Origin: Candidatus Latescibacterota bacterium
GTDB lineage: Bacteria > Latescibacterota > UBA2968 > UBA8231
DNA: 64,000 bases
Assembly (NCBI GenBank): GCA_965203175.1
Contig: OZ241867.1
Span: 864,001 to 928,000, forward strand
Direction of reading: 5' to 3'
The notes under the pieces are model-generated. The model was not told the DNA's origin. It did no database searches and saw only the letters and a list, made by a program, of their open reading frames with translations. Positions 34,926 through 57,855 of this stretch are shown piece by piece; the first letter of the stretch is position 1; every line of letters begins with the position of its first letter. The position numbers and the translations under genes were made by a program.

Positions 34926-35702
34926 CTAGTACCCCAAGTCGGCGCGAACGCGCGCCATCTGTTGGCAGCCAGCCGCGAGAAACGGCTCGTCGCCACCAGC
35001 GAGAATCAGCGAAAAGCCGTCGTCTATGGCGCGTTGGATTGACTGCGGGTCGCCAGCCGGGCGATAGACCCCAATACCAGCGGGCTTACCAGCGCGGCGA
35101 GCGGCCGCGGCCAACTCGGCCTGAGCATCTTGGAAAACAGACCCCTCGTAGTCAAAGGGCACCCCCAGCGAGATGGACAGATCGACCGGGCCGATGACGA
35201 ACGTATCGACGCCCTCGACGGCAAGAATCTCGTCTATATTGGCGACCGCCTCGGCCGTCTCAATCAACGCGATGAATATCACCAAGTCGTTTATCTCCGC
35301 GAAGTACTCGTCAGTGCGCAACCCGTATTGGGCCGCTCGATGCGGTCCGAAACCGCGAATGCCAACCGGCGGATAGCGGCAGGCGCGCGCGCCTTCTGCG
35401 GCTTGGGCAGCGGTGTTGACGAACGGAGCGAGAATGCCCAGCGCGCCCATGTCGAGGTAGAGGCGGATCTGCTCTTCGTCGATGCGCGGCAGGCGGACGA
35501 TGGGCGTGGCCGGGGTATTGCCGATGGCCTGCAATTGCGCCTGTATGCCAGTGGGGGTTTGCGGCGCGTGTTCCGAGTCGATGACGAGAAAGTCAAAGCC
35601 CGAGTGGCCGCAGAGTTCGGCAATGGCCGGAGAGCCAAAGCGGAGCTGGGTACCAAAAGCGGGTTTGCCCGCGGCGAATTGATCTTTAATGCGATTGTGC
35701 AT
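34926..35702 (-). CDS. HpcH/HpaI-family aldolase
   Basis: GFDFLVIDSEH, LDMGA, YPPVGIRG, IETAEAV, IGPVDLS. Confidence 0.9.
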   Translation of the reverse strand: MHNRIKDQFAAGKPAFGTQLRFGSPAIAELCGHSGFDFLVIDSEHAPQTPTGIQAQLQAIGNTPATPIVRLPRIDEEQIRLYLDMGALGILAPFVNTAAQAAEGARACRYPPVGIRGFGPHRAAQYGLRTDEYFAEINDLVIFIALIETAEAVANIDEILAVEGVDTFVIGPVDLSISLGVPFDYEGSVFQDAQAELAAAARRAGKPAGIGVYRPAGDPQSIQRAIDDGFSLILAGGDEPFLAAGCQQMARVRADLGY

Positions 35703-35762
35703 GTAGTCTCCTAACAAACGTTACATACCATCCTGCCTATGTGCTAAGCACTGTCCTTACCT

Positions 35763-35816: not shown

Positions 35817-37712
35817 TTAATTCCACGGCAGAGCGTACGAGGGCTTATTGACGAAACGCTCCATCCCCAAGTCGAGCCGAATCGCCGATCCAGGCTGGAG
35901 GCAGACGGTGAAGTGGCGACCCTGTACGGCGACCGTTTTGTCCTCCAGTTGCCCCTGAACGTTCTGCTGATATTGGGTGGCATGCGAGTGTCCCGCACCG
36001 GCTTCCTCAGCCGAGAGGGGCCGGCGCTGCTGATAGGCAACGCGGGTGAAGCTGTGCTCGCCAAAAGCGCCGGCCTGCAGCAATACCTCGCGCTCTTCCG
36101 TCGGGTGCAGATTGACCAAGTGCAGGACAGCCCGCTCATCTGCCAGCGATTCCACCAAGGCGGCCACGTCTAACGGCAAGCCCGGGCGGCGGCGTTGCGG
36201 GTCGAAGTAGCGCAGGCGAGCCATGAGCAGGCCGCCGTTGTACATGAAGAGCGGGGCACCCATCGTCAGTTGCACCAAACCCTCGACAGTGATGGGATTG
36301 CGCACCTGCAGGTATGCATCGCTGTACGTAGCAGGATCTTGCTGATCGTCGCGCATGAAGGCCAAGCGCTGATATACTTGCGCGTGGTTGTGCCGCAGAA
36401 TGTCCACCGGGTAGTCCGGGTATTCGCCTTCGAGATACGCGGTCCAAGCAGCTTCGTGGCCGCCGCCGTGCTTGGAAAAGTGCGAGCTTACCTGCCGCCA
36501 GTTGTCGCTGTCGTAGTTGCGCTGCTGTTTGAGCCGCGCCAAGTCCTCTTGCTGCATGCTCATGTACCAGAGGTGGGTCGTGGGATGGGCCTGCATGGGG
36601 CTGTACCCGTCCCAGCCTTTGTCGTGGTAGAAGTGCGGCGCGTACAGCGTCTGCCCTCTCATTTCTCCCTGCTGCATCAGCACGTCGATTTGCGAGCGCG
36701 GAAAGTCCATGTAGCGCAAATCGCCGGAGAGCAAGGCCGCGTTTTCCGCAGCCGCAATGCAGGCGTCGCTCAGGTGGTGCCAGCCGTGCGGCCACGTCCA
36801 GCCGTAGTACCCGCCGTACCACTTGCCGTCGATGTATTCGCCGATCTGCCCCGACAGGCCAACGTTGTCGGGCAGGATGCCGTTGTTTTGCCGGGTGCGC
36901 TCGATCCACGCGTTGGTGTATTCCTCGACCCAGGCTCGGTACTTGTCGTCGCCGCTGCACAGGTAGGCGTTGGTCACCATGCTAGTAGCGGCGAGGTTGC
37001 AGGCCACATCGCCGCGGCTCATGCGCTCGACGAGGGTTTGGCCCATCTTCTCTTCCATGCCCGGCTTTTGCAAATCCTCGACCGTCTCAATGCCGGGAAT
37101 GTCGTGAAAGGGCAAAGGCCAAGGTTTCCACTGGGCGTAGCGATAGACCGTGTAGTGCTTTTCAAAATTGCGGTGCGCCGGTCCCATGCTGCCATTGTGA
37201 GCGCAGCGGATGAGCTTTTTCTCCGCGTCGTAGTTGGGGGCCTCGGGGTCTTCGTTGAGATAAAAGCCCGCATAGCGCTTGGCGCGCTCGACGTTCTTTT
37301 CGGTCGGATCGGCGAGGCACAGCAAATAGAAAAACAAGTACCCCTCGCCTTGGTGCATCCAGTCGTAGCCTTGCTCGTATTCTTTGACGATCATGGGATG
37401 GCCGTGGCCGGTATCGTAGCGGGTGAACTGCCGGGTGATGCCCTCCCAAGTGCGGTGGGAATATTCGAGCATGTGATCGCCGCCGCCCATCAAGTAAAAA
37501 AGCGGCCAGTTGTGGAAGCTCTCGTACGCGTCGTCGAGGCCATCGATGCTGCTGAAGTCCTCTGTGGGCGGCCACAGCACCGAACCGTCCGGGCGCACGT
37601 AGCGCTCCATGAGCGGATGGACGGAGGCGTCCATCAGGTCGATTAGGCTGCGCTCGAGAACGGCCCATTGGGGCGGCTCGACAAACGGTATGTTCCCTTC
37701 GATTCTTACCAC
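35817..37712 (-). CDS. Conserved hypothetical cytoplasmic enzyme (Trp/Tyr-rich, possible alpha/alpha-toroid glycoside hydrolase or lyase)
   Basis: 631 aa, host-like codon usage; DDAYESFHNWP, DWMHQGEG, WYGGYYGWTWPHG, RYFDPQRRRPGLP. Confidence 0.7.
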   Translation of the reverse strand: MVRIEGNIPFVEPPQWAVLERSLIDLMDASVHPLMERYVRPDGSVLWPPTEDFSSIDGLDDAYESFHNWPLFYLMGGGDHMLEYSHRTWEGITRQFTRYDTGHGHPMIVKEYEQGYDWMHQGEGYLFFYLLCLADPTEKNVERAKRYAGFYLNEDPEAPNYDAEKKLIRCAHNGSMGPAHRNFEKHYTVYRYAQWKPWPLPFHDIPGIETVEDLQKPGMEEKMGQTLVERMSRGDVACNLAATSMVTNAYLCSGDDKYRAWVEEYTNAWIERTRQNNGILPDNVGLSGQIGEYIDGKWYGGYYGWTWPHGWHHLSDACIAAAENAALLSGDLRYMDFPRSQIDVLMQQGEMRGQTLYAPHFYHDKGWDGYSPMQAHPTTHLWYMSMQQEDLARLKQQRNYDSDNWRQVSSHFSKHGGGHEAAWTAYLEGEYPDYPVDILRHNHAQVYQRLAFMRDDQQDPATYSDAYLQVRNPITVEGLVQLTMGAPLFMYNGGLLMARLRYFDPQRRRPGLPLDVAALVESLADERAVLHLVNLHPTEEREVLLQAGAFGEHSFTRVAYQQRRPLSAEEAGAGHSHATQYQQNVQGQLEDKTVAVQGRHFTVCLQPGSAIRLDLGMERFVNKPSYALPWN

Positions 37713-37722
37713 TTTAGCCTCC

Positions 37723-39402
37723 TCATGTGTTGCGGACGAGGGCCTCTACCTGTGCGCGGAAGACCTCGATTTGCGCCGCGTACTCGTGGCGCAATTGGAT
37801 GATGAATTGCCCAAAGAGCCGCTCCTGCTTTTGTCGGCGCACCAGTGCCCGAGCGCGGCGCTCGGCCTGTGCAAAGGGCCTCGGTGCGGCGTTGATCGTC
37901 GAATCGAGCAAGCGGAAAATGGCGTAGTACGGGCCGCTGATCGGCTCGGAGCTCAGCACCTCGGCGGCAGTAACCTCCAAGGCAATCGGACCGATGAGTG
38001 CGCCGACTTTTTGCCCTTGTGCCGCCTCAAAGAGTGGTACGAACTGCTGCTTCTCCCAAGGATGCAGATGAAACTCGCCTTGGTGGGCTTTGCCGCGGCG
38101 GCGCAGGGTGTGCTCCGCGGCCAGCGCGCCCAAGTCGCCGCCGCGCTCCACTTCCTCGCGCAATGCGAGCGCCTCCTCCTCTGTGCGAACTAAAATTTCC
38201 TGTACGCCGATCGATTCGAGGGGGCGGAAAAGGTTGGGATGGCGGTCGTAGAACGCTTGGGCTTCTTCGCGGCTGGCGAAGACGCCATCGACCACGTCCC
38301 GGCGCATGGCCACCAGCAAGTTCGATAGCTGCCGCTCTTGGAACCAAGCGACCACTGCTTCTTCGCGATCAACGCCCGCCGTGTACGCGCCGGCCAAGAG
38401 CAGCGCGCGCGGCTCGACGATGTCTCGGACGAACCAGTCGAACTGCTCGGGCGCGTCCTCTGGAAAGCCAACGCCTAGTTCGCGGGCAAAATCGAGCAGA
38501 TCGCCGATGGTAAATGTGCCGCTCTCGTGCTCGTAGATCGGCTGCTCGCGCTCCTCTGCAGAAAACGCCTTGGCACCCTGCCCAATGCGCCCGCGCACGC
38601 GCTCCAAGGCTTGGTCGTGAACCACAAAGTCGAGTTCCTGCCGCAAGCGAGCCGACAGCGCCTGTACGGCCGGCGGCAGCTTCTCCTTGAGTAGCTCGGC
38701 CTCGATGACCGACTGCACGACCGAGAGCTTGACCGGCGCTTCGGCTGTTATCTCGTACACGCCGAACTGGTCGTTGAAGAGCACCGGCTCCGAGAACTGA
38801 CCCGGTGCCAACGGAAAGACCTTCTCCTGCAAGATGCGTGGGTACAGCTCGTCCTTGATCAGGTAGCGGCCCTCCTCTAGCTGGGTCGCGTCGAGCAGGT
38901 TGTGGCTAGCCCATGTGTCGAAATCGTCGCCGCCCTCCAAGGCCGCCTTGATCGCTCGCGCCTCTTCTATTGTGGCAACTACGATGCGCCGCACTTGCAC
39001 GGCGCGGTCGCGGCCTGTCTCTCGCTGGTGGGCCAGCATTTCCTCTTGCGTGTGGACGATCTTGTCGTACACCTCTAGCTGCAAAAAGCGGCGCAAGACG
39101 CGGTCGTTATGCAGCTTGTCCATCTTGCGGCGGAAGTCGGCGCGCTGGTCGAGGCCCCGCTTTTTGGCCTCCAGGACCATGAGCTCCTTGTCGATTATGG
39201 TCTGCAGGTAGTCGAAATAGGCATCCGCACCCGTCTTCTTGCTCCGCAGATCGGGATGTAGCCTTTCTTCAAACTCCAGCAATTGAGGGGCGTCGATTTC
39301 CACCTCGCCGACTCGGGCCACCACCAAGTCCTCGGTGGGGGTGCCGCAGCTCCAGCAAACGAGGAGCCACAGCCAATATACCGCGTGCTTCGATCTACTC
39401 AC
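37723..39402 (-). CDS. PpiC/SurA-type peptidyl-prolyl isomerase-like lipoprotein with two rotamase domains
   Basis: Lipobox-like VCWSC; VVARVG, LQTIIDKELMVLEAKKRGLD, RRIVVATIEEA, EILVRTEEEA, FSEPV; probable GTG start overlapping upstream stop. Confidence 0.78.
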   Translation of the reverse strand: MSRSKHAVYWLWLLVCWSCGTPTEDLVVARVGEVEIDAPQLLEFEERLHPDLRSKKTGADAYFDYLQTIIDKELMVLEAKKRGLDQRADFRRKMDKLHNDRVLRRFLQLEVYDKIVHTQEEMLAHQRETGRDRAVQVRRIVVATIEEARAIKAALEGGDDFDTWASHNLLDATQLEEGRYLIKDELYPRILQEKVFPLAPGQFSEPVLFNDQFGVYEITAEAPVKLSVVQSVIEAELLKEKLPPAVQALSARLRQELDFVVHDQALERVRGRIGQGAKAFSAEEREQPIYEHESGTFTIGDLLDFARELGVGFPEDAPEQFDWFVRDIVEPRALLLAGAYTAGVDREEAVVAWFQERQLSNLLVAMRRDVVDGVFASREEAQAFYDRHPNLFRPLESIGVQEILVRTEEEALALREEVERGGDLGALAAEHTLRRRGKAHQGEFHLHPWEKQQFVPLFEAAQGQKVGALIGPIALEVTAAEVLSSEPISGPYYAIFRLLDSTINAAPRPFAQAERRARALVRRQKQERLFGQFIIQLRHEYAAQIEVFRAQVEALVRNT

Positions 39403-42253
39403 TAAGTCCTGCTTGCACTGTGACAAAAGTCAATCCACTGGTTTCGATGCGAGCCTTCTCCTCCGCGAGCTCTATTCGCCGCTTGTCAATGCGCAGCCCC
39501 ACTTGGGACATGAGCTTATAGCCCAAGTACGAAGTTGTATTGGACAATTGCACGGCAAAGGACGTCTCGTTGTAATCCCCGGTGGTATCACCTGCGTTGA
39601 CGGTGGCCTCGTCCACGACCATGTCGCGGAAACGCAAGTACTCCGTGCCGAACTGTACGACCGACCGTTTCATAAAGGGCACCTTTACCAATACCGAGGC
39701 CAGCGCGCTCCAATCGCGGCGCTCGGCCGTGGGGGTACCTAGCTGGCGCTCAATATTGAACGGAGTATCGTCCATGAACAACTCGTGCTTGAGGCGCGGC
39801 AGCGCGGTTATGCGGCCTAGATGCAGTGGGTACTCGGCCTTGTTGATCAGCCCCAAGCGCCGCGCATTGCGTTGCAAGGAACGGCCATCGCGGTCAACGG
39901 CATCTTCTCGCCGTTGCTGCATGAATTCATACAGCAGCTTGCTCTCGCTCTGGAGGCCAGCGCGGCCGCGGCGCTCAGCGCCTATCCACAGCTTGTTGAC
40001 CAAGGCATCGCCCATGCCCAGTGGATCGCGGATGGCGATCATGCCGCCGGGGGAATTGCTCGAGCGGCCGAGCACGGGGCGCAGTTGAATCCACTGCACC
40101 AAGTCTTCGGCGATCGCATCGGCAGCCCACTTGAACGAATTATACGCCGTCAGCGTGCCCAATCCGGCAAAGCTCTGTTCGTACGCCAGCAGGGCATAGT
40201 ACGTGCGGTTGCGCGCACCCGTCGTCGGCTTGCGCTCCCACACCTGCCCAGTCGTCAGCTTGAGTTCGGGCCGGAGCTCCGCGCTGAGATAGGCGTTGTA
40301 CCCACGCCGGTCGCGCTTGTAGGGGTAGTCGGGCTCTTCGTCGTTTTCAAAGCGGTCGCCCCAGCCATTGTTGTTCAAATCGAGGGCAAAGAGATACTCG
40401 GGGCGATCGACATTGTAGCGGAGAAAAGGCTCTTCGTAGTCGGGCAAGAAATTGGGACGCTCGCGCAGGTCGTTTTGATTGAAGTCGGAAATAAAGTCGT
40501 TGTTCTCGTCGAGGCCGGGGAAGACCGCGTCGTCGGCAAAACCCTCAAAGGTGCGCGCGCGGCCCTGGCGCTGCTCACCGATGCGGCCGTCGTCAAAGCG
40601 GCGCTTTTGGTCGTTGATGCGGTCGTTGTCGTCGTTGTCATCGACAAAGTCGTACACGTGTCGCGACCGCGCTTCGTCGTCGTTGGACCAATCCACCCGG
40701 CCGCCGCTATCGACAAAGCGCGGGCTCGTGTCGTACTCGGCGTCTAGGCCGAATGCCTCGCCAAAAAAGTAAAACGGCGCAAAGCGGCGAGAGACATTGA
40801 CCATCCAGCCGAGGGCCGCGCGATCCCCGCCAATGCCCGAGGACGCCTTGTGCGTATCCCGTGTCCGCGTCGGGTACTGGGTGAACTGGTGGTTGACGTT
40901 GAATTCGCCGTACACGCGGAAGCCAACCCAATCGTCGGCCTGAAGCGTCAGCCCGGCCACCTGCGTCGCCGTCGGCAGTCCGTAGTCAAAGACTACCGTC
41001 CGCTGGTTGGAGTTGTCCCAGACGTTGCCCTCGGCCCGGGCGACCGTGCGAAACTGCGGCTGCTCGCCGCTGGGACTGTTGTCGGTCTGGCGGTTGGACG
41101 TGACCTCTACCTTGTAGTCGTTGCCCAACACCAAACGGAAGCGCACCCGGCTGATTTGGTTGACCAAGTCCGCGCTCGGCACTACAGATTCTAGATCCGC
41201 GACCGCTGGATCTTCGTCAGAAAACACGTATTCAAGCAAGATCTGGCTCGCCTCGCCCCGGCCCTCGGCCGTCAGAAAACCGCCCCGCTCGATTCCACCG
41301 ACGATGCGCGGCGCAAAGCCAATCTCGCTGCCAATCAGCAGGGTGTCGCGGTCGCCGATCCGCGTCTCAATCTCAATATCGCTGCCAAAAAGCACGGCTC
41401 CACCGCCCTCGTCTTCGGGCGAATCGTCGGTCAGCCGCACCACGATGCGGTCGATGCGTCCGTCTAGCTGGCCGCTCGTCAGCTTGCCCTTGAGCGGGTG
41501 GCCCTCAAAGCGGTCGGAAGCCGTCCGGCCGTTGTGCGCGTTGAGAAAGGTGCCGCCGATCCGCGTCGTAGCGCCCAAGTCCAAGACCACGCGCCCGCCG
41601 ATGAGGTTGGTGAAATTGTCCTCTGTCACGGGAAAGGGGTCCGTGCGGAACAGCGGCAGGTTGATCCGCGACATCAGCACGGTGGCCGTCAGGCGGTCGG
41701 CCGCGTAGTTGAACATAACCCCATTGTACGCGGTCTTGCGAAAGGTCATGGGCGTCAGCATGGCGAAGATCTCGTCGCCGATGAGCACTGAGAAGTAGTG
41801 CTGGCCCTTGGTGTCGCCGGCAATGACCAAGTTGCGGAACCACGAGCCGTATTGGCCGGCCTGCAAAATGCCCGAACCGCCCGAGCCGGTCGGCTGGACC
41901 TGACGCCAGTCGTAGATCAACCAGCCCTTGTTCAAGAAGCGCCCGTAGAGGTCGTAGAAGTACCCACCCTCCAACCCCGGATCGAGGTAGCGCCGATAGG
42001 AGTCCCGCGCGTAGTTAGTGTAGGCCCACTGGCGACGGTACTCGCCGGCAATTTCCTGCGGCAGATACCACTTCTGCAACGAGGGATAGACGGCCTCCAT
42101 GCGCAGTCCCGTGCCGGCCGAATAGTAGATCGGCTGGCCCGTTTCGATGCGGCCCAAGCGGCTGCCGTAATCCTCGCGCTGGGCGCTGAGCGGCGCGGCC
42201 CCAAGCAGCGCGACCCAGCAGAGAGCGCCGACGCGGCGCAAGCTGGCGTTCAT
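39395..42253 (-). CDS. Large secreted hypothetical protein, putative outer-membrane beta-barrel with Asp-rich block (paralog B)
   Basis: Signal peptide; many amphipathic beta-strand segments; DENNDFISDFNQND, DLNNNGWGDRFEND; colinear with 42258-45014. Confidence 0.7.
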   Translation of the reverse strand: MNASLRRVGALCWVALLGAAPLSAQREDYGSRLGRIETGQPIYYSAGTGLRMEAVYPSLQKWYLPQEIAGEYRRQWAYTNYARDSYRRYLDPGLEGGYFYDLYGRFLNKGWLIYDWRQVQPTGSGGSGILQAGQYGSWFRNLVIAGDTKGQHYFSVLIGDEIFAMLTPMTFRKTAYNGVMFNYAADRLTATVLMSRINLPLFRTDPFPVTEDNFTNLIGGRVVLDLGATTRIGGTFLNAHNGRTASDRFEGHPLKGKLTSGQLDGRIDRIVVRLTDDSPEDEGGGAVLFGSDIEIETRIGDRDTLLIGSEIGFAPRIVGGIERGGFLTAEGRGEASQILLEYVFSDEDPAVADLESVVPSADLVNQISRVRFRLVLGNDYKVEVTSNRQTDNSPSGEQPQFRTVARAEGNVWDNSNQRTVVFDYGLPTATQVAGLTLQADDWVGFRVYGEFNVNHQFTQYPTRTRDTHKASSGIGGDRAALGWMVNVSRRFAPFYFFGEAFGLDAEYDTSPRFVDSGGRVDWSNDDEARSRHVYDFVDDNDDNDRINDQKRRFDDGRIGEQRQGRARTFEGFADDAVFPGLDENNDFISDFNQNDLRERPNFLPDYEEPFLRYNVDRPEYLFALDLNNNGWGDRFENDEEPDYPYKRDRRGYNAYLSAELRPELKLTTGQVWERKPTTGARNRTYYALLAYEQSFAGLGTLTAYNSFKWAADAIAEDLVQWIQLRPVLGRSSNSPGGMIAIRDPLGMGDALVNKLWIGAERRGRAGLQSESKLLYEFMQQRREDAVDRDGRSLQRNARRLGLINKAEYPLHLGRITALPRLKHELFMDDTPFNIERQLGTPTAERRDWSALASVLVKVPFMKRSVVQFGTEYLRFRDMVVDEATVNAGDTTGDYNETSFAVQLSNTTSYLGYKLMSQVGLRIDKRRIELAEEKARIETSGLTFVTVQAGLSE

Positions 42254-42257
42254 GCCG

Positions 42258-45014: not shown

Positions 45015-45028
45015 TAGACCCTCCCTAA

Positions 45029-47194
45029 TCAGTACACTAATTCGACAACTCTAACTGCGCTTTCGCCGCCTGTATCGCTGGCTAGCGTTACGCGCACTAA
45101 GTAAATGCCCGGCGGCAGCGCGTTCCCGTTCGCATCCGCGCCGTCCCAAGGCATGGCGTACGAACCGCCGCCCTGGAGGCCGGAAAATAGCTGGCGCACC
45201 CGGCGTCCGGCCAAATCGACGATGTCCACATCAACCGGGGACGGGCTGACCAAACGGCTCAGATCGTAGTACACCTGCGTCGCATCGTTGATTCCATCGC
45301 CGTTGGGGCTGAAGGGCCGGGGATCGGCCCGCACGTTGATCAGCAAGGCGCTGCCGCCGGCTAGTGGCACATCCACCGAAAGGCCCCGGTTCGTCTCCGT
45401 GCCAACCGCCACAATATCGTCGTCGCCGGGAGCCAGCGCGGCCACGTTGCCAGCGACGACCTCCTGCCCCACATCTCCCTCGTCGCTGTTGAAAGCAAAA
45501 CCGGCGAACTTGGTGCCGTAGCGCAACACGCGGCTGCGAAAGCGAATTTTGAGCTGGGCCGTCCGCCCGGTCGCCAGTTCGCTTTCGGCAATGAGGGGAA
45601 AGCGCACGCGAAAGCGGCGCGCATCGACCGACTCAATGGCAAAGCGTCCGGTCTCGTCCGTAGCTGGCAGCGCGGCAAGATCAGCCATTGAAAAATCCGC
45701 GGCCTCAACTTGGCCATCGGCGTCGATGACTTCAATGGAGTCAATGACCTCTACTCGCACCGGCGTGACGATCTCAAAACCGTCAAAGCCCGTATCTACG
45801 TCTGGCCGGATGGACGTGGGCATCACCGCATAGACGAAATCCACCGGCTTGCCCAAATCGACCTGCCGCGGAAAGATCTCTCCGAGAATCTGCGCGGCCG
45901 GCGGCGGCGAGGCCACGGTAAAGGCCAGTGGGCCGATGCCTGTGGCCGCCTCCAAATCCTCGCTGAGAAAATCGATGCGAAACTGTATGTACCGCCTCGG
46001 CCCAGGCGAGACAATCGGCACGCCCAATTGGCTATCCTCGATCTCTGCCTCGGTCAACTGGGTCCCCAGTTCGTAGGGCGAGGACCACGGGCTCCAAGCG
46101 TCTAAGTCGGCGACCACATTGCCCCGCTCGGCACCCAAGCCCTTGTAGTCGTCCGACGACAGCGAGATGGCGTTGCGCTCCTCCAGCGGCAGCGCACCAA
46201 AGAGCGCACGCGCACGCGCTAAGTCGGCTTGGTCGAGATTGACCTCGCCGTCCTCAGTCGCAACCGTGGCATTCTTTTTCCACGGCACCTCGACTTGGAC
46301 CCCCTCGAAGAAGAAGCGCCGGGTATAGACTAAAGGGGTGTCGTCCAAGCCGGTGCGGGTGCGCACGCGCGCGTTGGCGAAACCAGCCGGGCCGACGCTT
46401 TCCTCCACCCAGCGAATGGTCCCCCACAAGCCCAAATCTGGGCCGAGGTCGAATATGTTGGATATGTATTCAGCCGTGGGCACGAAGCCCGTGCCAAAGA
46501 CGCGGAACTCGGCGATTTCAAAACCGTTGCTGGTGCGCGACTGCAAGCGGATGAAGCGCACAAATTGCGGGGGAATGCTCAAATCGACTAGCGCGTCTTG
46601 GTTGGCGGCATTCAACCGAAACGAACGCCATTCCGGGCCGCCCGCGCCTTGCGTCTCCTCGCTGCCGTCGTTGAAAAACAGCTCGTAGCCGCGGATGAAG
46701 TCCTCTTGGAACGGGTCTGCGGGAAAATCCGGGTGGCCATTGCGCGGGAAGAACTGGACGCGATTGACCCCAAAGCGAGCGCCTAGGTCGAAGTCCATGG
46801 CCATGCCGCGAATGACGGCCACGTTCTTGCGCTCCAATGCCGTTTCGCCGTCGCCGTCGATCATCGTCTCTAGCTGCGACTCAATGCCCGCTTCGAGAAC
46901 CGTCGGCGAGGTGACCGAACCGCCGCGCCCGAGTATGCCGAGCGCTAGATTGGTGCCTTCGACGATGTTCTGCGGAAAAATCCAACCCTCTCGCCCCTCG
47001 GGATCGAAATCGATCACGCCGCCCGGGGTGTTGCCGCTCTCGACCGCTCTGGCCCCGGTCGGAAAAATCGCCTGTATCTGGCCGCCGCCGTCTTGCCAAG
47101 ACGATCCGCTCGCGCCGCCGATGGCAATGCTCCGCGTCTCGGCTGTGCCTTGCAGCGCCGCTAACAACATCAGCGCGATCGGCAACCAGTACAT
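45029..47194 (-). CDS. Secreted protein with discoidin-like region and C-terminal FlgD-Ig/T9SS-B-like domain
   Basis: MIDGD...DFDLG...RFIRL...EIAEFRVFG; FSPNGDGIND...DLAGRRVR...WDGAD...PGIY; start MYWLP (ATG 47194) with GGAGG RBS. Confidence 0.78.
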   Translation of the reverse strand: MYWLPIALMLLAALQGTAETRSIAIGGASGSSWQDGGGQIQAIFPTGARAVESGNTPGGVIDFDPEGREGWIFPQNIVEGTNLALGILGRGGSVTSPTVLEAGIESQLETMIDGDGETALERKNVAVIRGMAMDFDLGARFGVNRVQFFPRNGHPDFPADPFQEDFIRGYELFFNDGSEETQGAGGPEWRSFRLNAANQDALVDLSIPPQFVRFIRLQSRTSNGFEIAEFRVFGTGFVPTAEYISNIFDLGPDLGLWGTIRWVEESVGPAGFANARVRTRTGLDDTPLVYTRRFFFEGVQVEVPWKKNATVATEDGEVNLDQADLARARALFGALPLEERNAISLSSDDYKGLGAERGNVVADLDAWSPWSSPYELGTQLTEAEIEDSQLGVPIVSPGPRRYIQFRIDFLSEDLEAATGIGPLAFTVASPPPAAQILGEIFPRQVDLGKPVDFVYAVMPTSIRPDVDTGFDGFEIVTPVRVEVIDSIEVIDADGQVEAADFSMADLAALPATDETGRFAIESVDARRFRVRFPLIAESELATGRTAQLKIRFRSRVLRYGTKFAGFAFNSDEGDVGQEVVAGNVAALAPGDDDIVAVGTETNRGLSVDVPLAGGSALLINVRADPRPFSPNGDGINDATQVYYDLSRLVSPSPVDVDIVDLAGRRVRQLFSGLQGGGSYAMPWDGADANGNALPPGIYLVRVTLASDTGGESAVRVVELVY

Positions 47195-47205
47195 CGCAAC
47201 CTCCC

Positions 47206-49698
47206 TCAATACACCACGTGAACGAGGCGGTGCCGCGCGGTGCGCTCCACGCGCGAGTCGTCGTTGGGCACCACTTCTACCTCTAGCAGATACAGTCCGG
47301 GGACGACCAATACGCCGGATTGATCCTCGCACGACCAGCGCAGGGCGTACTCGCCGCTGATCAAGGGCCGCGTCTCCTGCCAGTGCCGCACCATCCGGCC
47401 GGCTAGGTCGTAAATCCGCACGTGGAGCGGCTGGGTGCCAGTCAGCTTAGTGACCGCGAATGAGAATGCCAACTCGTCGTTGATCCCATCTCCATTCGGC
47501 GTCGCGACCCCACTGCCAATGCTCAGGTCGCCCAGCACGTGGCGGCCGCCTTCTGGGCCTACCAACAGCATCCCCTGCCCGGTCGCCAACTCCGTTGCAT
47601 CCGCTGGGTCAACCCGCTGCCAAGAATCTTCAAGGGCCGAATGCCCCAACGACGCCTTGAACACGGCACCGGGCAAGTAGAGGGCGGTGGCGAATTGCAC
47701 CTCAATCAGATCGGCTGCGGACGGGGCGACGACCTCGCTCAACCGCACCCACAAAGAGTCTGGAGCAGTCGCCACTACTTCTGCTGAGGCCACTAGTTCC
47801 GCACTGTCCCATTGGGCTTCGCGCCCCAGCCGCAGGCCCCGGAACTCCAGTGCCATGTTATCCGGTGCCCTTATCTGCACCTCGTCAAACCCCGCGCTCT
47901 GCGCAGCGAAACGCGGTTTGATGAAAAGCGAGAGCTCCTGCTCCTTGCCCAACGCGCCTACGACGCCGGGTTCGATCTCGCCTAAGAGCTGCCTAGCCAG
48001 CGGCTCGACGAAGTTGAGCCGAATGGAGCGCAGCTCGGCCGCGCGGTGTGGGTCGTCCGAGACCAAGCGGGCCTTGAGTTCCAGAAATTGGCGCGGGCTC
48101 GGAGAAGTAATCGCCGCGCCCGACGTCTCGTAGGGCAAGCTCCACGCGCTCCAGTCGCCTCCGGGGACTTCCGTCGTGTCGACCGGCCCCTTGCTGAAAA
48201 AGCCCAAGCCAGCGTATGCCTCGGCCGACACTTCGGCACCGCCGCTGTTGAAATAGCGATACTCTTCGACCAGCTCGCTGCCCGTGCGCGTCTGAATTTC
48301 GATAAAAGTTCCTAAATCGGCATCTCCATCCCACTCAACCGAGACCAAGTTTTTCGAGCCGCCCAAGCGGATGAGCGGCGAAACCAACTCGACTTCCGGC
48401 TGGAAACCCTCGCCGTAGAACTGCACTTCGCGCGGCTTGAACTGACCGCCTCCCCAGAACAAAATCCGCGCATAGCGCGTCCGCGTCGGCGCGAACGTAT
48501 CCACGTCGTACACGTCTCCGGTATAGTGGCCAGACGTGGCGCGGTTGCGCCGCGCGGCCTGCGTCGTCCACACCAGCGAGCCGTCCGCAGCTAGCGAGCC
48601 GTCCGAAGTCTGCAAGTCGTAATTGGGAAAGCGGCTGCGCTGGCGGTCGTAGTAAATCTGGTGCCGGTCGATCCAGAAGGAAGATCCTAAATCGAAGAAT
48701 AACTCCCGTATCTCGTCGGTGCTGGTAAAGGCCAAGGACGTCTCGAAGATGCCGTCGAAGAAGGCCGTCGCGGGCGCGTTGTCCAAGAAGGTGAGCAGCG
48801 CGACGCCTCTGCGCTCCACCAAGCCCAGCGAGATGTTTTCCCCGAGCGTCTGAACCTCCAGTTCGGCCAGCCGCGGCCGCTCGCGGCGATAGCGGCGGAT
48901 CTCACCGCGCAACGCAGAGTCAACCACCTCGTACGTGGCCTCGCTCACCTGCACTTGGCCCGCGCCGGCCTTTTTGTAAAAATCCACTGCGCCTTGATCC
49001 GCAGCCGCTAGCTGGTCGTATTGTTCAGCCGACACCTCGGCGGCTCGCGTGCTATCCGTGTCGGTGATCGTCAGGCGCACGAAGCGGATGTAGTCGCTCA
49101 CCATGCGCCCTTCTCTGTCAAGGCGCGAGGGGCTCAGCTCGATTTCAAATTCTCGCTGATCCTTGTTCGACTTCAAGGTGCGGAAGACTTGGTTGAATCT
49201 GCGCTGGCCTTTGGTAACCTCGGCTCCGTCCGAGGTCAAAACCACGAATTGCAGGAAGGGGTCGCCTATATCCTCGCCGACGAATGTAAGTCGGATATGG
49301 GTGGCCGCCACCAGCCGCCCCAAATCGACCTCAAACCACCATTGGCGCAATGGACTTGCCGGATCGGGTTCCCAATAGGTGCTCAAGTCCCCGTCGAAAA
49401 GGTGGGCCAGATCTGCGGCCCGAGTGCCCGCACTGAGGGCGTCGCGCAGGGTCGCGTCGTCCGATCCCGTGCCGCGCTTGATAAACGCCGCGATGTCCGA
49501 CGTTGCCAGTGTGTTCTTGGGCACAAAGTGGGGACGCACGACCCCGGTCTCGTCGATGTCGAGCGTACCGCCGGGAAAAGTCCACTGCTGCCAGTGCGCC
49601 TGCCGATCGACGACGACCTTGTTCTCGGCGATGGTATGGCCCTGTCCCCAGGCGGCGACAACCCCCAACACACTCAGTAACAACGCAGCATTCAACAT
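47206..49698 (-). CDS. Secreted protein with two discoidin-like regions and C-terminal FlgD-Ig/T9SS-B-like domain
   Basis: LFDGDLSTYW...EVDLG; FFDGIFET...FFDLG; TPNGDGIND...YDLAGRMVR...PGLY. Confidence 0.78.
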   Translation of the reverse strand: MLNAALLLSVLGVVAAWGQGHTIAENKVVVDRQAHWQQWTFPGGTLDIDETGVVRPHFVPKNTLATSDIAAFIKRGTGSDDATLRDALSAGTRAADLAHLFDGDLSTYWEPDPASPLRQWWFEVDLGRLVAATHIRLTFVGEDIGDPFLQFVVLTSDGAEVTKGQRRFNQVFRTLKSNKDQREFEIELSPSRLDREGRMVSDYIRFVRLTITDTDSTRAAEVSAEQYDQLAAADQGAVDFYKKAGAGQVQVSEATYEVVDSALRGEIRRYRRERPRLAELEVQTLGENISLGLVERRGVALLTFLDNAPATAFFDGIFETSLAFTSTDEIRELFFDLGSSFWIDRHQIYYDRQRSRFPNYDLQTSDGSLAADGSLVWTTQAARRNRATSGHYTGDVYDVDTFAPTRTRYARILFWGGGQFKPREVQFYGEGFQPEVELVSPLIRLGGSKNLVSVEWDGDADLGTFIEIQTRTGSELVEEYRYFNSGGAEVSAEAYAGLGFFSKGPVDTTEVPGGDWSAWSLPYETSGAAITSPSPRQFLELKARLVSDDPHRAAELRSIRLNFVEPLARQLLGEIEPGVVGALGKEQELSLFIKPRFAAQSAGFDEVQIRAPDNMALEFRGLRLGREAQWDSAELVASAEVVATAPDSLWVRLSEVVAPSAADLIEVQFATALYLPGAVFKASLGHSALEDSWQRVDPADATELATGQGMLLVGPEGGRHVLGDLSIGSGVATPNGDGINDELAFSFAVTKLTGTQPLHVRIYDLAGRMVRHWQETRPLISGEYALRWSCEDQSGVLVVPGLYLLEVEVVPNDDSRVERTARHRLVHVVY

Positions 49699-49710
49699 GG
49701 CCCCTGCTCC

Positions 49711-51660
49711 TCAATAGGCGACGGCAATGGGCCGCATTTGCACTTGGCGCTTCCCACCGCTCTCGACCTCGACTTGGCAGATGTACAGACCGGGGGCCAC
49801 CTGCTGGCCGGCCTCGTCTCGCCCGTCCCACTGATGCGGATGCCGTCCCGCGACATCGACGTCTGCGTACACGCGCCGCACTAAGCGGCCGCTCAAATCC
49901 CGCACCAGCACCTCCACCGGCACCGGCTCGGTCACCTTGAGCAGTTCGTAGGCGATCTCCACTTGGTCGTTGATCTGGTCGCCGTTGGGCGTAAACGCCT
50001 CGGTGCTCAGAGACACAGCTCCTAAGACCTTATTGTCTAGGGTCATCGCCTGCACCAAAAGTTGGTTGCCATCTACCAGCTCGTTGGCCTCGCCAGCGGC
50101 CACGATCTGCCCGATCTCCCCCGGCGCTGTACTGTCGATCACCCGGCCTTCAAAAATTGCACCAAAGCGGAAAATTTCCGCGCGCACATCCACTTCGAGT
50201 AGCTCGCCACTGCGCTCGACATCCAACCGTGGGAAACCCAAAACTACGCCGGCCTCCTCGGCCACGGCGCTGAAATCCGCCACGGATTCACCACTGAGGC
50301 GCACGGCCTCTACGTCGACGATCCGGCCGCCGACCAAGCGCAGGTCCAACCCGTCAAACCCTTGGTCGCCGGGTTCAATCGTCGGGCGCACTGCATAGGT
50401 AAACGTGCGTTCCTCAGCCACTGCCGCTTGCCAAGGATCGATCTCGCCGACTAAGCCGGTCACCAAGCGCGGGGAAACGGCGAATTCGAGATAGCCGAGC
50501 TGGCCGCCGGCTTGGCCGAAGGAGCTGAATGCTATCCTGAACTGCACGTAGCGGTGGGAGCGCGTCGCCCGCAGCGCCACGCCCGCGCTGTCGGCGAATT
50601 CGTACGGCGACGACCACAGCTCCCATTGGGCGGTGTCGTCGGTGATGGCTCCGCGCATGATCGGCCCCAAGCGGCCATAGGTTTTGCGGGTCAGCAGCTT
50701 GCCGTCCTCGCCGAAGGGCACCTGTTCGTCGCCCCGGAAGGTATTGCGCCAGTACACCAGCGGCGTCTCGTCGCCGCCAGCGCGGGAGCGGATCTCCACT
50801 TGCGCCCCTTCGTCCTGCCGCCCTCCCCAGCGCACCCAGCCCAAATTGGCGAATTCGCCTATATCGAGAACATTGGACTGGTACGAGGCCGAGCCTTGGA
50901 AACCGCCGCCGTACACCTCCAACTCAGCTAGGTCCCATATCTTATCTTGGGGCATCACGTGAATCATCAAATAGCGGATCGGCGTTCCGTCTAGCTCGAT
51001 GTCGAGCTGCGGATTTTTGTTTTCCAAAATTTCCGCGACCACCTTTAGCTCAATGCCCTTCTTGCTGTCGGCCTCTCTCAGCGACCGATTGAGCGCACTC
51101 GCTCCAACGAATTCAATCTGATCAACGCCGCCCCCGGCATCGGTCTGCGCGGCGACGATGACGTGGGCGACAGAGCGTTCGCTGCCCACCTTTGGGACGA
51201 AGCGGACCAACCGCGTCGCAAAGTCGCCGCCGAGATCAAAAAAAAGAGCCGTGCCGCGGAAGGTATGGGCGTGTTCCCGCGGACGGGTCTCCAAGAAAAA
51301 CGTCTCCAGGTCCCCGTCGATCACCAAGCTCAGTTCGTCGCCGACATCTTCAAAACCATTGTACGCGCCGTGCTGAAAATTGCCGCTGACCCCGCTCAGG
51401 GTCGTCGCCATATTATCGCTCTCGTTGTAGAAAAACGGCGTGATCTGCTCGGTGAGCGCGAGCCCAAAGCTCTCGCCGCCTAAGTTCTTGTCTAAGTCGG
51501 CCCAGCTCAACTGGCGAAATTCAGCACCGGCGTCCACCTCAGCCGGAGGCGGCAGACTCTCGCCGCCGATGCGATAGACGACCAAGGCCGCGCTCGGCTG
51601 GACGCCGAGCAAAGCCAACAGGGCCGCGACGAGCCATGTCGTGCGCTGCAATTTTTTCAC
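49711..51660 (-). CDS. Secreted protein with discoidin-like region and C-terminal FlgD-Ig/T9SS-B-like domain
   Basis: Signal peptide; VIDGDLET...FFDLGG; FTPNGDQIND...DLSGRLVR...WDGRD...PGLY; GTG start with GGAGG RBS. Confidence 0.78.
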   Translation of the reverse strand: MKKLQRTTWLVAALLALLGVQPSAALVVYRIGGESLPPPAEVDAGAEFRQLSWADLDKNLGGESFGLALTEQITPFFYNESDNMATTLSGVSGNFQHGAYNGFEDVGDELSLVIDGDLETFFLETRPREHAHTFRGTALFFDLGGDFATRLVRFVPKVGSERSVAHVIVAAQTDAGGGVDQIEFVGASALNRSLREADSKKGIELKVVAEILENKNPQLDIELDGTPIRYLMIHVMPQDKIWDLAELEVYGGGFQGSASYQSNVLDIGEFANLGWVRWGGRQDEGAQVEIRSRAGGDETPLVYWRNTFRGDEQVPFGEDGKLLTRKTYGRLGPIMRGAITDDTAQWELWSSPYEFADSAGVALRATRSHRYVQFRIAFSSFGQAGGQLGYLEFAVSPRLVTGLVGEIDPWQAAVAEERTFTYAVRPTIEPGDQGFDGLDLRLVGGRIVDVEAVRLSGESVADFSAVAEEAGVVLGFPRLDVERSGELLEVDVRAEIFRFGAIFEGRVIDSTAPGEIGQIVAAGEANELVDGNQLLVQAMTLDNKVLGAVSLSTEAFTPNGDQINDQVEIAYELLKVTEPVPVEVLVRDLSGRLVRRVYADVDVAGRHPHQWDGRDEAGQQVAPGLYICQVEVESGGKRQVQMRPIAVAY

Positions 51661-51675
51661 AATGGCACCTCCAAG

Positions 51676-51715
51676 AAGAAGAGGGGATGGGACTAGCCCA
51701 TCCCCCCTCGTTCTT
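51676..51715 (-). terminator. GC-rich intra-operon hairpin (terminator/attenuator or mRNA-stabilising stem)
   Basis: GGGGATGGG (51683-51691) / CCCATCCCC (51697-51705), extendable with AAGAA/TTCTT. Confidence 0.6.
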
Positions 51716-51735
51716 GCATCCTAAATACTGCCCGC

Positions 51736-52680
51736 TTACTGGACGAAAGCAGACTTGATGCGACCCCAGCTATTCTCCTCGACCGCAGTCTCGATCGCGC
51801 TAAAATCGACGCGCGGATCAAGGGGTGCCAGCAGGAAATCCGTGGCCGAAGCCGTGGTTTTCCACACGTCGCTGGCGCCCGACAGAGACCACTGGCCAGA
51901 GTGCTCGGCATCCTGGCCGACGCCGCCGTCAGCACCGGCTACATCGCTGTCGAAGACCGCCCAGCCCAAGCCGGTGATCTCGCCCTCGTTGTAGTCGTGG
52001 ATGACGCTGCCTTCCGGGTCGTTGAAGAGAAAATCATCCCAGGCTTGGCGTCGCACCTCGATAAAGGCCGTGGCCTCGCCACCGCCGATTTCGCCGTCCA
52101 AGCGGAAGCCGTGGTCAGCGTAGGGCAGCTCGTCGTGCCACTGCGCTTGGGTCATCCAAAACCACGACCAGCTCTCCTGGCCGTCGGGGCCGAGATTCGG
52201 GAAGCGGGTGTGGTAGGACTGCGACCAGCGGCCTTGGGCCAAGGCGCGCTCTTCCTCGTTCTCTATGTCGGCAGTGCCGAAGCGCATCTGATCGCCGCTG
52301 TGGTCGCCATCGACGTGCATTTCCCAGCTATCGTCGCCGCCGGCCACGCCGCCTTGGGCGTCGCGATCGTAGAAGTCGTCAAAGCGCTCCATCATGAAAT
52401 AGAGACTGTTGGTCGATTCGCTCCAGCCGACGATAGTGCGGAAGTTCAAATCGCCGAACTCGGCCGGCTTTTCGCCATTGAACGCGGTGTGATCGGCAAA
52501 GGTAATCAAGTAGTCCTCGGGGACGATCGACCATTCGGACAGATCGCCGTCCAGCGTGGGCTCAAGGCCCGCCGGCCACTGGAAAGCCGTGCGCACAGCG
52601 CCCTCGGGCACGTGCGCCGTAGCCGGAGCAACGACGGCCACGCACAGGGCCAGTGCGAAGAAAACAGTGATTTTTTTCAA
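51736..52680 (-). CDS. Secreted CBM9/DOMON-like sugar-binding protein with C-terminal SWGRIK motif
   Basis: Signal peptide ending ATA; PTLDGDLSEW, VGWS, DDSWEMHVDGDHSG, FDSD; ends TAVEENSWGRIKSAF; TTG start spaced correctly from AAGGAGG. Confidence 0.7.
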   Translation of the reverse strand: MKKITVFFALALCVAVVAPATAHVPEGAVRTAFQWPAGLEPTLDGDLSEWSIVPEDYLITFADHTAFNGEKPAEFGDLNFRTIVGWSESTNSLYFMMERFDDFYDRDAQGGVAGGDDSWEMHVDGDHSGDQMRFGTADIENEEERALAQGRWSQSYHTRFPNLGPDGQESWSWFWMTQAQWHDELPYADHGFRLDGEIGGGEATAFIEVRRQAWDDFLFNDPEGSVIHDYNEGEITGLGWAVFDSDVAGADGGVGQDAEHSGQWSLSGASDVWKTTASATDFLLAPLDPRVDFSAIETAVEENSWGRIKSAFVQ

Positions 52681-52806
52681 AATCATCCTCCTTGGTTTTA
52701 GGATAACGCCCGCTACAGTGGGGCATATTAGGAGCTTATTATAAAACAAACGCTTCCGTTTTACTACTCTTAATCTTCGGCAATGACCTCCTTTCTCGGT
52801 TGTAAC

Positions 52807-55628: not shown

Positions 55629-55643
55629 ATTATCATTCCACCT

Positions 55644-57851: not shown

Positions 57852-57855
57852 AAGC

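Follow-up and report, generated by a model that had tools for sequence, protein, structure and literature searches.

According to two reports, type-B substrates of the T9SS (type IX secretion system) are genetically linked to PorP/SprF shuttles in Flavobacterium (PMC12618676), and type-B proteins are anchored by binding PorP-like barrels (PMC9143113). Literature on the type-B CTD (C-terminal domain) together with PorP is Bacteroidota work only, among the matches listed. For the Latescibacterota, a widespread and uncultured phylum, the main text of a genome analysis from 2015 assumes that the breakdown products of polymers are taken up via non-specific porins (PMC4454575); the words 'discoidin' and 'dockerin' are absent from that article, taken without its supplementary files. 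Here we describe a locus of Candidatus Latescibacterota bacterium (GCA_965203175.1) that lies in a window of 64,000 nucleotides, bases 864001-928000 of a single contig of 6.58 Mb (genome completeness 93%, contamination 6.5%). Eight co-directional genes on the minus strand (g1 to g8, 35817-52749 of the window), adjoined upstream by the gene of a tetratricopeptide repeat (TPR) lipoprotein, encode a secreted accessory protein (g1), three secreted proteins with T9SS-type tails (g2, g3, g4), two giant proteins predicted to be outer-membrane β-barrels (g5, g6), a double-parvulin protein (g7) and a DUF8034-like protein (g8). A first-pass annotation made from the sequence alone had read them as a candidate glycan capture or uptake machine without SusC/SusD. 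We report that the locus belongs to an outer-membrane module which is apparently specific to the phylum and of which it is one copy among very many; its 40-fold repetition in the genome is the main result and was missed by that annotation. The nearest described logic is that of type-B T9SS cargo held by cognate PorP/SprF barrels.

All counts for the organism's own genome rest on a crude set of open reading frames (ORFs) comprising 5121 proteins. Searching this genome with g5 returned 76 matching pieces, and 62 barrel paralogs were found in the ORF set, spread over 40 loci with one barrel in 21 loci, two in 16 and three in 3. The labelled barrel stretches total 632,072 bp, corresponding to 9.6% of the genome. 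Within eight genes of the barrels, a tailed protein of the g2/g3/g4 family is encoded in all 40 loci (three or more in 38), a peptidyl-prolyl isomerase (PPIase) of the parvulin lipoprotein type in 34, a g1-type protein in 33, a DUF6785 protein in 25 and an FG-GAP/ASPIC protein in 23. Likewise, 127 of the 168 strong members of the tailed family fall into barrel zones, which hold 14% of the genes. For 43 of the 48 barrels without a preceding barrel, a tailed-protein gene lies directly 5′ on the same strand. Among the 146 barrels of 79 related loci from other genomes, 67 follow a g4-type gene and 58 a further barrel on the same strand. The same gene set was present in all 79 of these loci and in the 40 loci here. 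This recurrence is far above chance, and we are nearly certain that the locus represents a real functional module.

The gene order recurred across loci and genomes as the first-pass annotation had anticipated. The exact order of the window (g1, g2, g3, g4, two barrels, PPIase, g8) was found in five of the eight loci with a barrel at least 93% identical (L021-L028). At 60-66% barrel identity, the loci mostly showed this order up to the PPIase gene, never with g8 directly after it, and some ran on into a DUF6785 gene, as does the operon of a paralogous locus in the own genome (L002). The g8 protein had been counted as a component, namely an unknown cytoplasmic enzyme. A g8 gene follows g7 in no loci but those of the close relatives L021-L028, and since only one of its 10 paralogs in the genome lies near a barrel, that one belonging to the window's own locus, we place it outside the module. 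No Pfam, NCBIfam or PDB match was obtained for the g8 protein (Pfam also searched at E ≤ 5), and its ESM Atlas score to DUF8034 clusters was 0.98.

The homologs of g5 are all annotated as 'hypothetical protein' of Latescibacterota-type metagenome-assembled genomes (MAGs) and carry no Pfam domain. Among 121 sampled genomes of the phylum, the barrel profile matched 70, including 40 out of 40 of the window's own family. Four other families, sampled with 29, 13, 5 and 2 genomes, gave zero matches. The module is thus found at the level of the phylum and not, as had been proposed, in one narrow lineage. A library of 1.84 billion cluster representatives yielded 963 barrel matches at E ≤ 0.001, 341 of them at E ≤ 1e-30. 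Four MAG records (L036, L049, L076 and L081) have 19-27 barrel matches each; one is labelled Gemmatimonas phototrophica, one Gemmatimonadota, one Planctomycetota and one only 'uncultured bacterium'. L036, L049 and L076, among which are the 'uncultured bacterium' record and two of the others, share their contig coordinates with genomes from the family of the window, so that the labels Gemmatimonas and Gemmatimonadota, at least, are probably wrong. Full-text literature on the outer membrane, polysaccharide utilization loci (PULs) or type IX secretion of Latescibacteria/Latescibacterota turned up no description of such a module, and literature combining discoidin, FlgD, beta-barrel and T9SS held no mention of 'Latescibacter' among the matches listed. 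Among the literature found, no paper describes this module, which in this sense is undescribed.

The two large proteins of roughly 930 amino acids, g5 and g6, had been noted as paralogs and taken for barrels, and both points held. They share 37% identity over 977 columns. Neither was assigned to a Pfam or NCBIfam family, even Pfam matches at E ≤ 5 being absent, and the barrel profile had no match among PDB sequences (best E 0.62), in agreement with the earlier view of an undescribed machine. The AlphaFold2 (AF2) model of g5, with a mean confidence (pLDDT) of 67, contains at least 22 long antiparallel strands between residues ~140 and 916 plus an inserted β-rich region, and leaves residues 15-138 and 527-613 unmodelled (pLDDT <50). 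The most conserved stretches among 40 barrel paralogs, residues 41-100 and 521-620, are roughly these unmodelled segments. In g5, residues ~521-620 (about 43155-43454) and the equivalent region of g6 are rich in Asp and Asn and contain loops resembling the calcium sites of the EF-hand consensus (DLNNNGWIDRFE). All Foldseek matches of the g5 model were outer-membrane barrels, namely LptD, SlpA, MtrB, ushers, SprA, porins and TonB-dependent receptors, at template modelling (TM) scores of 0.15-0.26. In an independent all-against-all structure search (VIA), Z-scores reached 13.9. Omp85-type barrels scored 13-14 (~250-280 residues aligned), and BT1762 (Z 10.3, 356 residues aligned), BtuB and FyuA (Z 9.9-10.1) scored no better than porins. 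The longest alignments were obtained for MtrB (400 residues), SlpA (365) and LptD (353-357). Judged from the model, g5 and g6 are very probably large transmembrane barrels of no recognisable family.

Known barrel signatures were searched for specifically. The SusC-type signatures (plug, PF07715; TonB_dep_Rec, PF00593) gave none in g5 or g6 at E ≤ 5, and a TonB box cannot be judged by eye. Genome-wide, PF00593 matched 30 pieces representing ~27 TonB-dependent receptors, none of them at positions of the barrel family, whose 62 members outnumber these receptors. PF11751 (PorP/SprF) did not match g5 or g6 at E ≤ 5, and its profile gave zero matches on the whole genome, as it likewise did on the control genomes. 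The Deinococcus SlpA barrel family PF21620 (cut-off 35) was detected below cut-off in five of 18 distant family representatives (16.7-30.2 bits) and not in the window barrels.

When all 62 barrels were placed in a tree, ten two-barrel loci had their first barrels together in one clade (support 0.83, 10/10) and their second barrels in its sister clade (support 0.999, 10/10). g5 fell into the first-barrel clade and g6 into the second-barrel clade. The barrel pair therefore arose once with both members kept, and on the evidence of the tree the two barrels are non-redundant. Physical assembly of the module, in the 1:3:2:1 stoichiometry postulated earlier, is an inference. A subfamily at ~30% identity occurs elsewhere in the genome (G000:C1, 2792466-2812000, 5632179-5650904, 6152039-6175000 and 6511322-6526567), where two or three barrels in position-specific clades are accompanied by a TPR protein of ~1085 amino acids. 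In the two flanks of these loci that were scanned, ExbB-ExbD-ExbD genes were present in both, DUF4159 in one and a double rotamase in one. Such loci are suggestive of a motor-linked envelope machine with a relationship to the cassette barrels.

From these neighbours it might be argued that the cassette barrels themselves are coupled to ExbB/ExbD-type proton motors, serving movement or active transport via an unrecognised TonB-like link; residues 41-100, the most conserved N-terminal segment of the barrel, are located where a motor-coupling element would sit. We consider this very improbable: neither the window nor the 20 cassette loci scanned contain an ExbB/ExbD gene, no TonB box or plug was recognised, and the motor-linked barrels form a separate clade with support 1.0.

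The three tailed proteins are paralogous (25-28% identity over 424-745 columns, E 1e-26 to 2e-51), g2 and g4 only to the C-terminal two thirds of g3. They had been described as three secreted discoidin proteins ending in a PNGDGIND tail; paralogy and tail were confirmed, and a discoidin domain was found by Pfam only in g3 (F5_F8_type_C_2, PF22633, 35.0 bits; F5_F8_type_C, PF00754, 29.9 bits; both above cut-offs), no such family reaching the cut-off in g2 or g4. The AF2 model of g3 is all-β (pLDDT 83), and Foldseek matched it to factor Va C domains, neuropilin b1b2, the ZmpB CBM32 (a carbohydrate-binding module, CBM) and F-lectin with E-values of 1e-7 to 6e-9 at low whole-chain TM; further matches were galactose oxidase, chains with Ig-like domains and PorU. 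A discoidin fold is thus predicted for g3. At the C-termini, Pfam identified FlgD_ig in g2 and g4 (40.2 and 39.9 bits, cut-off 27), and in NCBIfam the tails aligned to the end of the PorU model (its final ~90 positions), none of the eight proteins exceeding a cut-off there. Of the tail models proper, the type-A model TIGR04183 (Por_Secre_tail, cut-off 23) listed only g4 with 19.9 bits, and the type-B model TIGR04131 was not listed for the window tails at E ≤ 0.01. CHU_C (PF13585, cut-off 27), which represents type-B tails in Pfam, scored 23.2 bits in g2, 17.1 in g3 and 21.6 in g4. An alignment of 28 tails clearly showed the motif FTPNGDGxND ... WDGxD ... PPGxY with an invariant Tyr at the end and invariant P9, N10 and D12. 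Of 55 tailed paralogs from 20 loci, 32 attained or exceeded the CHU_C cut-off, 12 scored lower and 11 were not listed for this family, and F5/8-type-C was listed in 18. With CHU_C at cut-off in 32 of 55 tails, the analogy to type-B CTD proteins and PorP drawn by the first-pass annotation appears apt.

The genome also encodes core components of the T9SS, as that annotation had considered. SprA was detected above cut-off (TIGR04189, 490 bits, or 618 with the neighbouring pieces), as was PorU (NF033707, 632.5 bits, cut-off 420), whereas the PorV-like gene beside PorU remained below it (147.5 bits, cut-off 250) and GldL and GldM gave no match, either here or in the control genomes. The tailed proteins are likely cargo of the T9SS.

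Such cargo might simply be anchored. The barrels would then be enlarged counterparts of PorP/SprF that hold type-B-like cargo as a variable coat of adhesins or lectins. Such a coat would serve to attach the cell to particles, hosts or other cells, or to vary its surface, without any transport through the barrel. This main rival explanation, which we regard as rather unlikely, accounts well for the CHU_C tails, for the cargo genes lying strictly adjacent to barrel genes as the type-B genes are reported to do in Flavobacterium (PMC12618676) and for anchoring by PorP-like barrels being the described fate of type-B proteins (PMC9143113). It would also explain why none of the 55 cargo proteins has an enzyme domain, why hydrolases are few in the flanks and why the barrels lack a plug or TonB signature. 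However, the barrels do not match the PorP_SprF model and, being roughly threefold longer than its 273 positions, are oversized for anchoring; the surroundings of the loci are enriched in polytopic membrane proteins, ATP-binding cassette (ABC) permeases and catabolic genes; and a locus with g1 and the same three classes of cargo each time resembles a single defined complex rather than independent adhesins.

The accessory protein g1 had been called CBM9/DOMON-like, an assignment without support from Pfam: CBM9_1 (PF06452) matched 0 of 26 family members at E ≤ 0.1, g1 had no Pfam or NCBIfam match, and its profile reached a best E of 0.19 against PDB sequences. The fold is possibly CBM9-like, the sole lead being look-alike clusters in the ESM Atlas (score 0.97) in which 13-100% of the members carry CBM9_1. 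The genome contains 44 g1 paralogs, 35 of them near barrels. A signal peptide ending in AxA precedes the predicted mature N-terminus, where a His is conserved in 24 of 28 aligned paralogs from the own genome and in 21 of 26 sequences of the family alignment (A4). A second nearly invariant His lies ~105 residues further on in a DxDHSGG motif. Histidine-brace copper proteins, among them the lytic polysaccharide monooxygenases, are characterised by a His at the N-terminus. At the extreme C-terminus (51736-51790), g1 and its paralogs share the motif TAVExxSWGxIK(A/S)xF with E303, W307, G308 and K311 nearly invariant in A4, which might be a sorting or docking signal.

For g7, probably a lipoprotein as first stated, the double rotamase was corroborated by two parvulin domains: Rotamase_2 matched two stretches (57 bits, cut-off 27), and Rotamase scored 23.8 bits (cut-off 21.7). 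No NCBIfam equivalog reached its cut-off, and among PDB sequences only PpiC was matched (18.7 bits). Of its 41 paralogs, 35 are located near barrels, and most have a canonical lipobox; that of the window copy is atypical (LLVCWSCG). The gene of the TPR lipoprotein precedes g1 in the same direction and had been omitted from the earlier gene list, which began at g1. Its family has 32 members, 22 of them near barrels, and the window protein shows sub-threshold similarity to the TPR regions of PgaA and BcsC.

The gene company of the module was surveyed by Pfam on 68 flank proteins of 20 loci. We detected seven DUF6785+DUF6784 proteins, five FG-GAP/ASPIC proteins, three GDSL esterases, two PhyH proteins, one GH5+CBM4_9 protein (glycoside hydrolase family 5), one sulfatase and one lysozyme-type GH108, besides UxuA, genes for sugar-acid metabolism and oxidoreductases, and components of ABC and major facilitator superfamily (MFS) transporters; 24 of the 68 were without any family, and in most loci no regulator was seen. 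In a proximity test, in which random positions lie within 10 genes of a barrel in 22% of cases, 30 of 53 DUF6785 genes and 41 of 60 FG-GAP/ASPIC genes were found at this distance. Clustering of 346 unlabelled zone proteins and comparison with all ORFs revealed further enriched families near barrels, namely the TPR proteins already mentioned, an unknown 252-aa family (16/17), PMT_2+TPR proteins (14/15), GDSL esterases (6/6), FGE-sulfatases (7/12), fused MFS/spermidine-synthase proteins (5/7) and ABC permeases (5/9). The enrichment of DUF6785, ASPIC, esterase, sulfatase and permease genes together with catabolic neighbours hints at a link to uptake and catabolism.

Some of these families deserve a short description. 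The 252-aa family (e.g., G000:C1:6170420-6171178, L101) has no Pfam or NCBIfam match, Pfam also being empty at E ≤ 5. PMT_2+TPR proteins are glycosyltransferases of the GT-C type, PMT_2/TMTC-like and fused to TPR repeats (e.g., G000:C1:5703303-5705108, L102, and 6084081-6085826, L109); their concentration hints that surface proteins are glycosylated. The DUF6785+DUF6784 proteins, with 53 copies of ~640 amino acids and at least 10 hydrophobic segments, are sometimes part of the barrel operon. No relative of the DUF6785 protein was found in the PDB, and no paper on its function in the full-text literature; for two of these proteins, relaxing Pfam to E ≤ 5 brought no further family.

The TPR and PMT_2+TPR families raise the question of export. 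TPR-plus-barrel arrangements are known from the exopolysaccharide exporters AlgK/AlgE, PgaA and BcsC. Barrels, TPR lipoprotein, PMT_2+TPR and DUF6785/6784 proteins might accordingly secrete or attach a glycoconjugate, or glycosylate surface proteins. The clustering of TPR (22/32) and PMT_2+TPR proteins near barrels would fit this explanation, as would the sub-threshold similarity to PgaA and BcsC, the lipopolysaccharide exporter LptD as top Foldseek match of the barrel, if at low TM, and the weak SlpA_C matches in distant barrel relatives (5 of 18, best 30.2 bits at a cut-off of 35). Nevertheless, neither the window nor the set of 68 flank proteins was seen to contain a polysaccharide synthase, Wzx/Wzy or GT2 glycosyltransferase. 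It is also difficult to see why a cell should need forty different exporters, this explanation leaves no role for the lectin-like cargo, and the TPR similarity is generic, so that we judge export or envelope biogenesis improbable.

The lack of SusC/SusD-type signatures at the locus, as first stated, was borne out. SusD/RagB (PF07980 and relatives) was found in none of the eight proteins or the TPR protein, and SusD is essentially absent from the genome, with one partial hit that contains a stop codon and is located elsewhere. In the phylum sample, partial SusD hits occurred in 21 of 121 genomes, at most one in each, and SusD was scarce in families without the barrel as well. A complementary distribution of barrel and SusD was considered and gave no signal, as SusD is scarce throughout the phylum sample.

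Taking these findings together, we favour the explanation that T9SS-delivered lectin-like proteins on cognate giant barrels form a device for substrate capture and probably also import, to which we assign a probability of roughly 45%. The gene layout strongly argues for a defined outer-membrane complex, because type-B-like tails are encoded beside a cognate barrel, the cargo classes are fixed at three, the foldase is private and there are many diverged copies. After secretion through the T9SS, the lectin-like tailed proteins would stay at the surface, docked on the giant barrel or barrels encoded adjacent to them, here presumably the non-redundant pair g5 and g6, and such a barrel-cargo complex is probable. 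Secreted g1 would be an accessory of the complex, and the TPR lipoprotein and the dedicated double-parvulin lipoprotein foldase would aid its assembly. Each of the ~40 diverged copies may serve a different ligand, most likely a glycan, glycan binding being slightly favoured over other ligand classes. The barrel would then pass the ligand or its fragments to the periplasm, where polytopic membrane proteins encoded close by (DUF6785/6784, ABC, MFS) and enzymes of catabolism might follow up; import through the barrel is a tentative proposal against which the odds are somewhat turned. Capture, probably with import, is preferred since the multiplicity of the loci, the lectin-type domains and the membrane and catabolic neighbours recall polysaccharide utilisation loci. 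The likeness to PULs suggested by the first-pass annotation accordingly applies to the layout, with few recognisable glycoside hydrolases, and layout does not show function.

Several observations weigh against this proposal. The barrels show no recognisable plug, TonB box or signature of TonB-dependent receptors, and energised import is therefore without support. The N-terminal ~120 residues and the Asp/Asn-rich segment of the barrel are unmodelled, and the lumen could be closed. Discoidin domains in general bind lipids and proteins as well as sugars. None of the 55 tailed paralogs contains an enzyme domain by Pfam, and glycoside hydrolases are scarce among the 68 flank proteins (one GH5, one GH108). 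The window tails are all below the CHU_C cut-off with TIGR04131 unlisted. Finally, DUF6785/6784 could be an envelope-biogenesis enzyme rather than a permease, and the clustering of PMT_2+TPR proteins at the loci fits glycosylation of surface proteins as well as uptake.

The genes of the locus and further features of the window are compiled in Table 1. Signal peptides were recognised by eye at the start of g1 to g6, a lipoprotein-like N-terminus in g7 and none in g8; the lipobox LLSIGGC at the N-terminus of the TPR protein was also found by eye. The longest ORF of g1 spans 51736-52749, with a likely start at the Met at 52686 yielding 316 amino acids including the signal peptide. For g4 (ORF 45029-47332), the Met at 47194 is the likely start, followed by the signal-peptide-like sequence MYWLPIALMLLAAL, as seen by eye. 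The tight arrangement on one strand after the first gene, as first noted, agrees with the coordinates (4-14 bp): the gaps are 75 bp between g1 and g2, 12 between g2 and g3, ~11 between g3 and g4, 14 between g4 and g5, 4 between g5 and g6 and 10 between g7 and g8, and g6 and g7 overlap by 32 bp.

Table 1: Features of the module locus and its surroundings in the window (window coordinates).
Feature	Coordinates	Strand	Remarks
TPR-repeat lipoprotein	52807..54330	-	First co-directional gene 5′ of g1; Pfam TPR_2 193.6 bits and many further TPR models
g1, secreted accessory protein	51736..52686 (from likely start)	-	~295 aa; 316 aa with signal peptide
Perfect hairpin, G+C-rich	51683..51705	.	In the 75-bp g1-g2 spacer, the only long one of the operon; 9-bp stem with 7 G-C pairs; consensus scan only
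g2, secreted all-β protein with T9SS-type C-terminal tail (g2 class)	49711..51660	-	649 aa; signal peptide by eye
g3, tandem discoidin/CBM32-like jelly rolls, Ig-like domains and T9SS-type tail (g3 class)	47206..49698	-	830 aa
g4, secreted all-β protein with T9SS-type tail; class directly 5′ of the first barrel	45029..47194 (from likely start)	-	
g5, first giant outer-membrane β-barrel (predicted)	42258..45014	-	918 aa
g6, second giant outer-membrane β-barrel, g5 paralog (predicted)	39395..42253	-	952 aa
g7, double-parvulin (SurA/PrsA-like) PPIase, probably lipoprotein	37723..39426	-	567 aa
g8, DUF8034-like protein, no signal peptide; neighbour outside the module	35817..37712	-	631 aa
HpcH/HpaI-type aldolase and D-2-hydroxyacid dehydrogenase, co-directional downstream	33935..35717	-	Pfam HpcH_HpaI 119 bits, 2-Hacid_dh_C 168 bits
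Divergent neighbours: β-helix protein, two FG-GAP/ASPIC (CRTAC1-like) proteins, GH31/melibiase-like protein	54423..61661	+	Pfam
DUF6785+DUF6784 polytopic membrane protein beside a GH32 gene, 15 kb from the locus	19148..21067	-	Pfam 406 and 100 bits; at least 10 hydrophobic segments

The hairpin in the g1-g2 spacer is a possible attenuator, processing site or RNA-stabilising stem. A promoter scan found one sigma-70-like site, fewer than in shuffled sequences (mean 4.1). RNA libraries from four studies yielded contigs with 95-99% identity to the window; g6, g5 and g4 are each partly covered by them, and one contig of 2118 nt bridges g1 and g2. In the four runs, g7, g8 and g3 were largely thinly covered or uncovered, though such contigs cannot show absence, strand or level. 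They are a weak sign of expression of the operon, with carry-over of DNA being possible. The aldolase and dehydrogenase genes downstream of g8 are possible catabolic cargo. At 61648-63978 the window contains a fused MFS/spermidine-synthase-type membrane protein (NF037959, 113 bits), of whose 7-member family five lie near barrel loci. The region 28001-32000 has a G+C content of 0.48-0.50 compared to ~0.60 elsewhere, includes a papain-family (Peptidase_C1) gene at 29048-29899 and may represent foreign DNA.

A genome that gives ~9.6% of its length to 40 copies of one module, and whose largest barrel family belongs to that module, is evidently organised around this device. If capture or import applies, the module would provide a route to glycan foraging independent of SusCD in the Fibrobacterota-Chlorobiota-Bacteroidota (FCB) group. 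It would extend the logic of type IX cargo plus cognate barrel beyond the Bacteroidota and provide names and roles for large unknown families, namely g1, the parvulins of the lipoprotein type, DUF6785/6784 and the barrel with its 963 clusters (50% identity). As a mere adhesin coat, it would still be the dominant surface feature of these cells. It may even represent a third, hitherto unrecognised architecture for substrate-specific capture and import at the outer membrane, beside TonB-dependent SusCD systems and simple porins, consisting of a fixed trio of lectin-like T9SS proteins, the g1 accessory with its N-terminal His (possibly a histidine-brace-like metal site), one or two giant barrels of a new family as docking sites for the others and a private lipoprotein foldase, in ~40 substrate-specific copies that take up about one tenth of the genome; we put this forward as a doubtful proposition.

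Compared with known systems, the module barrel shares its size class and overall barrel architecture with LptD, MtrB, the FimD/PapC ushers and Deinococcus SlpA, but there is no sequence relation, the TM scores are 0.15-0.26, the Z-scores are no higher than for small porins or Omp85 and the gene context is another one. The SprA-PorV-PPI translocon (PDB 8gl8 and 8gl6, both among the Foldseek matches) likewise brings together a barrel, a tailed substrate and a peptidyl-prolyl isomerase; however, this match is generic (query-normalised TM 0.22-0.23), the genome has its own SprA, and the PPIase of the module is a parvulin lipoprotein with 41 copies.

The SusC/SusD PULs and utilisomes of Bacteroidota resemble the module in occurring as dozens of diverged loci that combine a barrel with surface proteins of the carbohydrate-binding type and have transporters and some catabolic genes nearby. 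Unlike them, the module has no TonB-dependent receptor, plug or SusD signature, its surface proteins carry T9SS tails instead of lipoprotein signals, and its loci contain few glycoside hydrolases and in most cases no regulator; import would here be a proposed property. With type-B CTD proteins and PorP/SprF, as in SprB-SprF or PG1035-PorP-PorE, the module has in common that CHU_C-like PNGDG tails are encoded beside a barrel gene, that many diverged pairs exist per genome and that SprA and PorU are encoded in the same genome. It differs from these systems in its organism, which stands outside the Bacteroidota, and in window tails scoring below the CHU_C cut-off. The module barrel, at ~920-950 amino acids and without PF11751, additionally possesses a conserved N-terminal segment, an inserted β-rich region and an Asp/Asn-rich segment, and the module often comprises two apparently non-redundant barrels together with three fixed cargo classes, g1 and a private PPIase.

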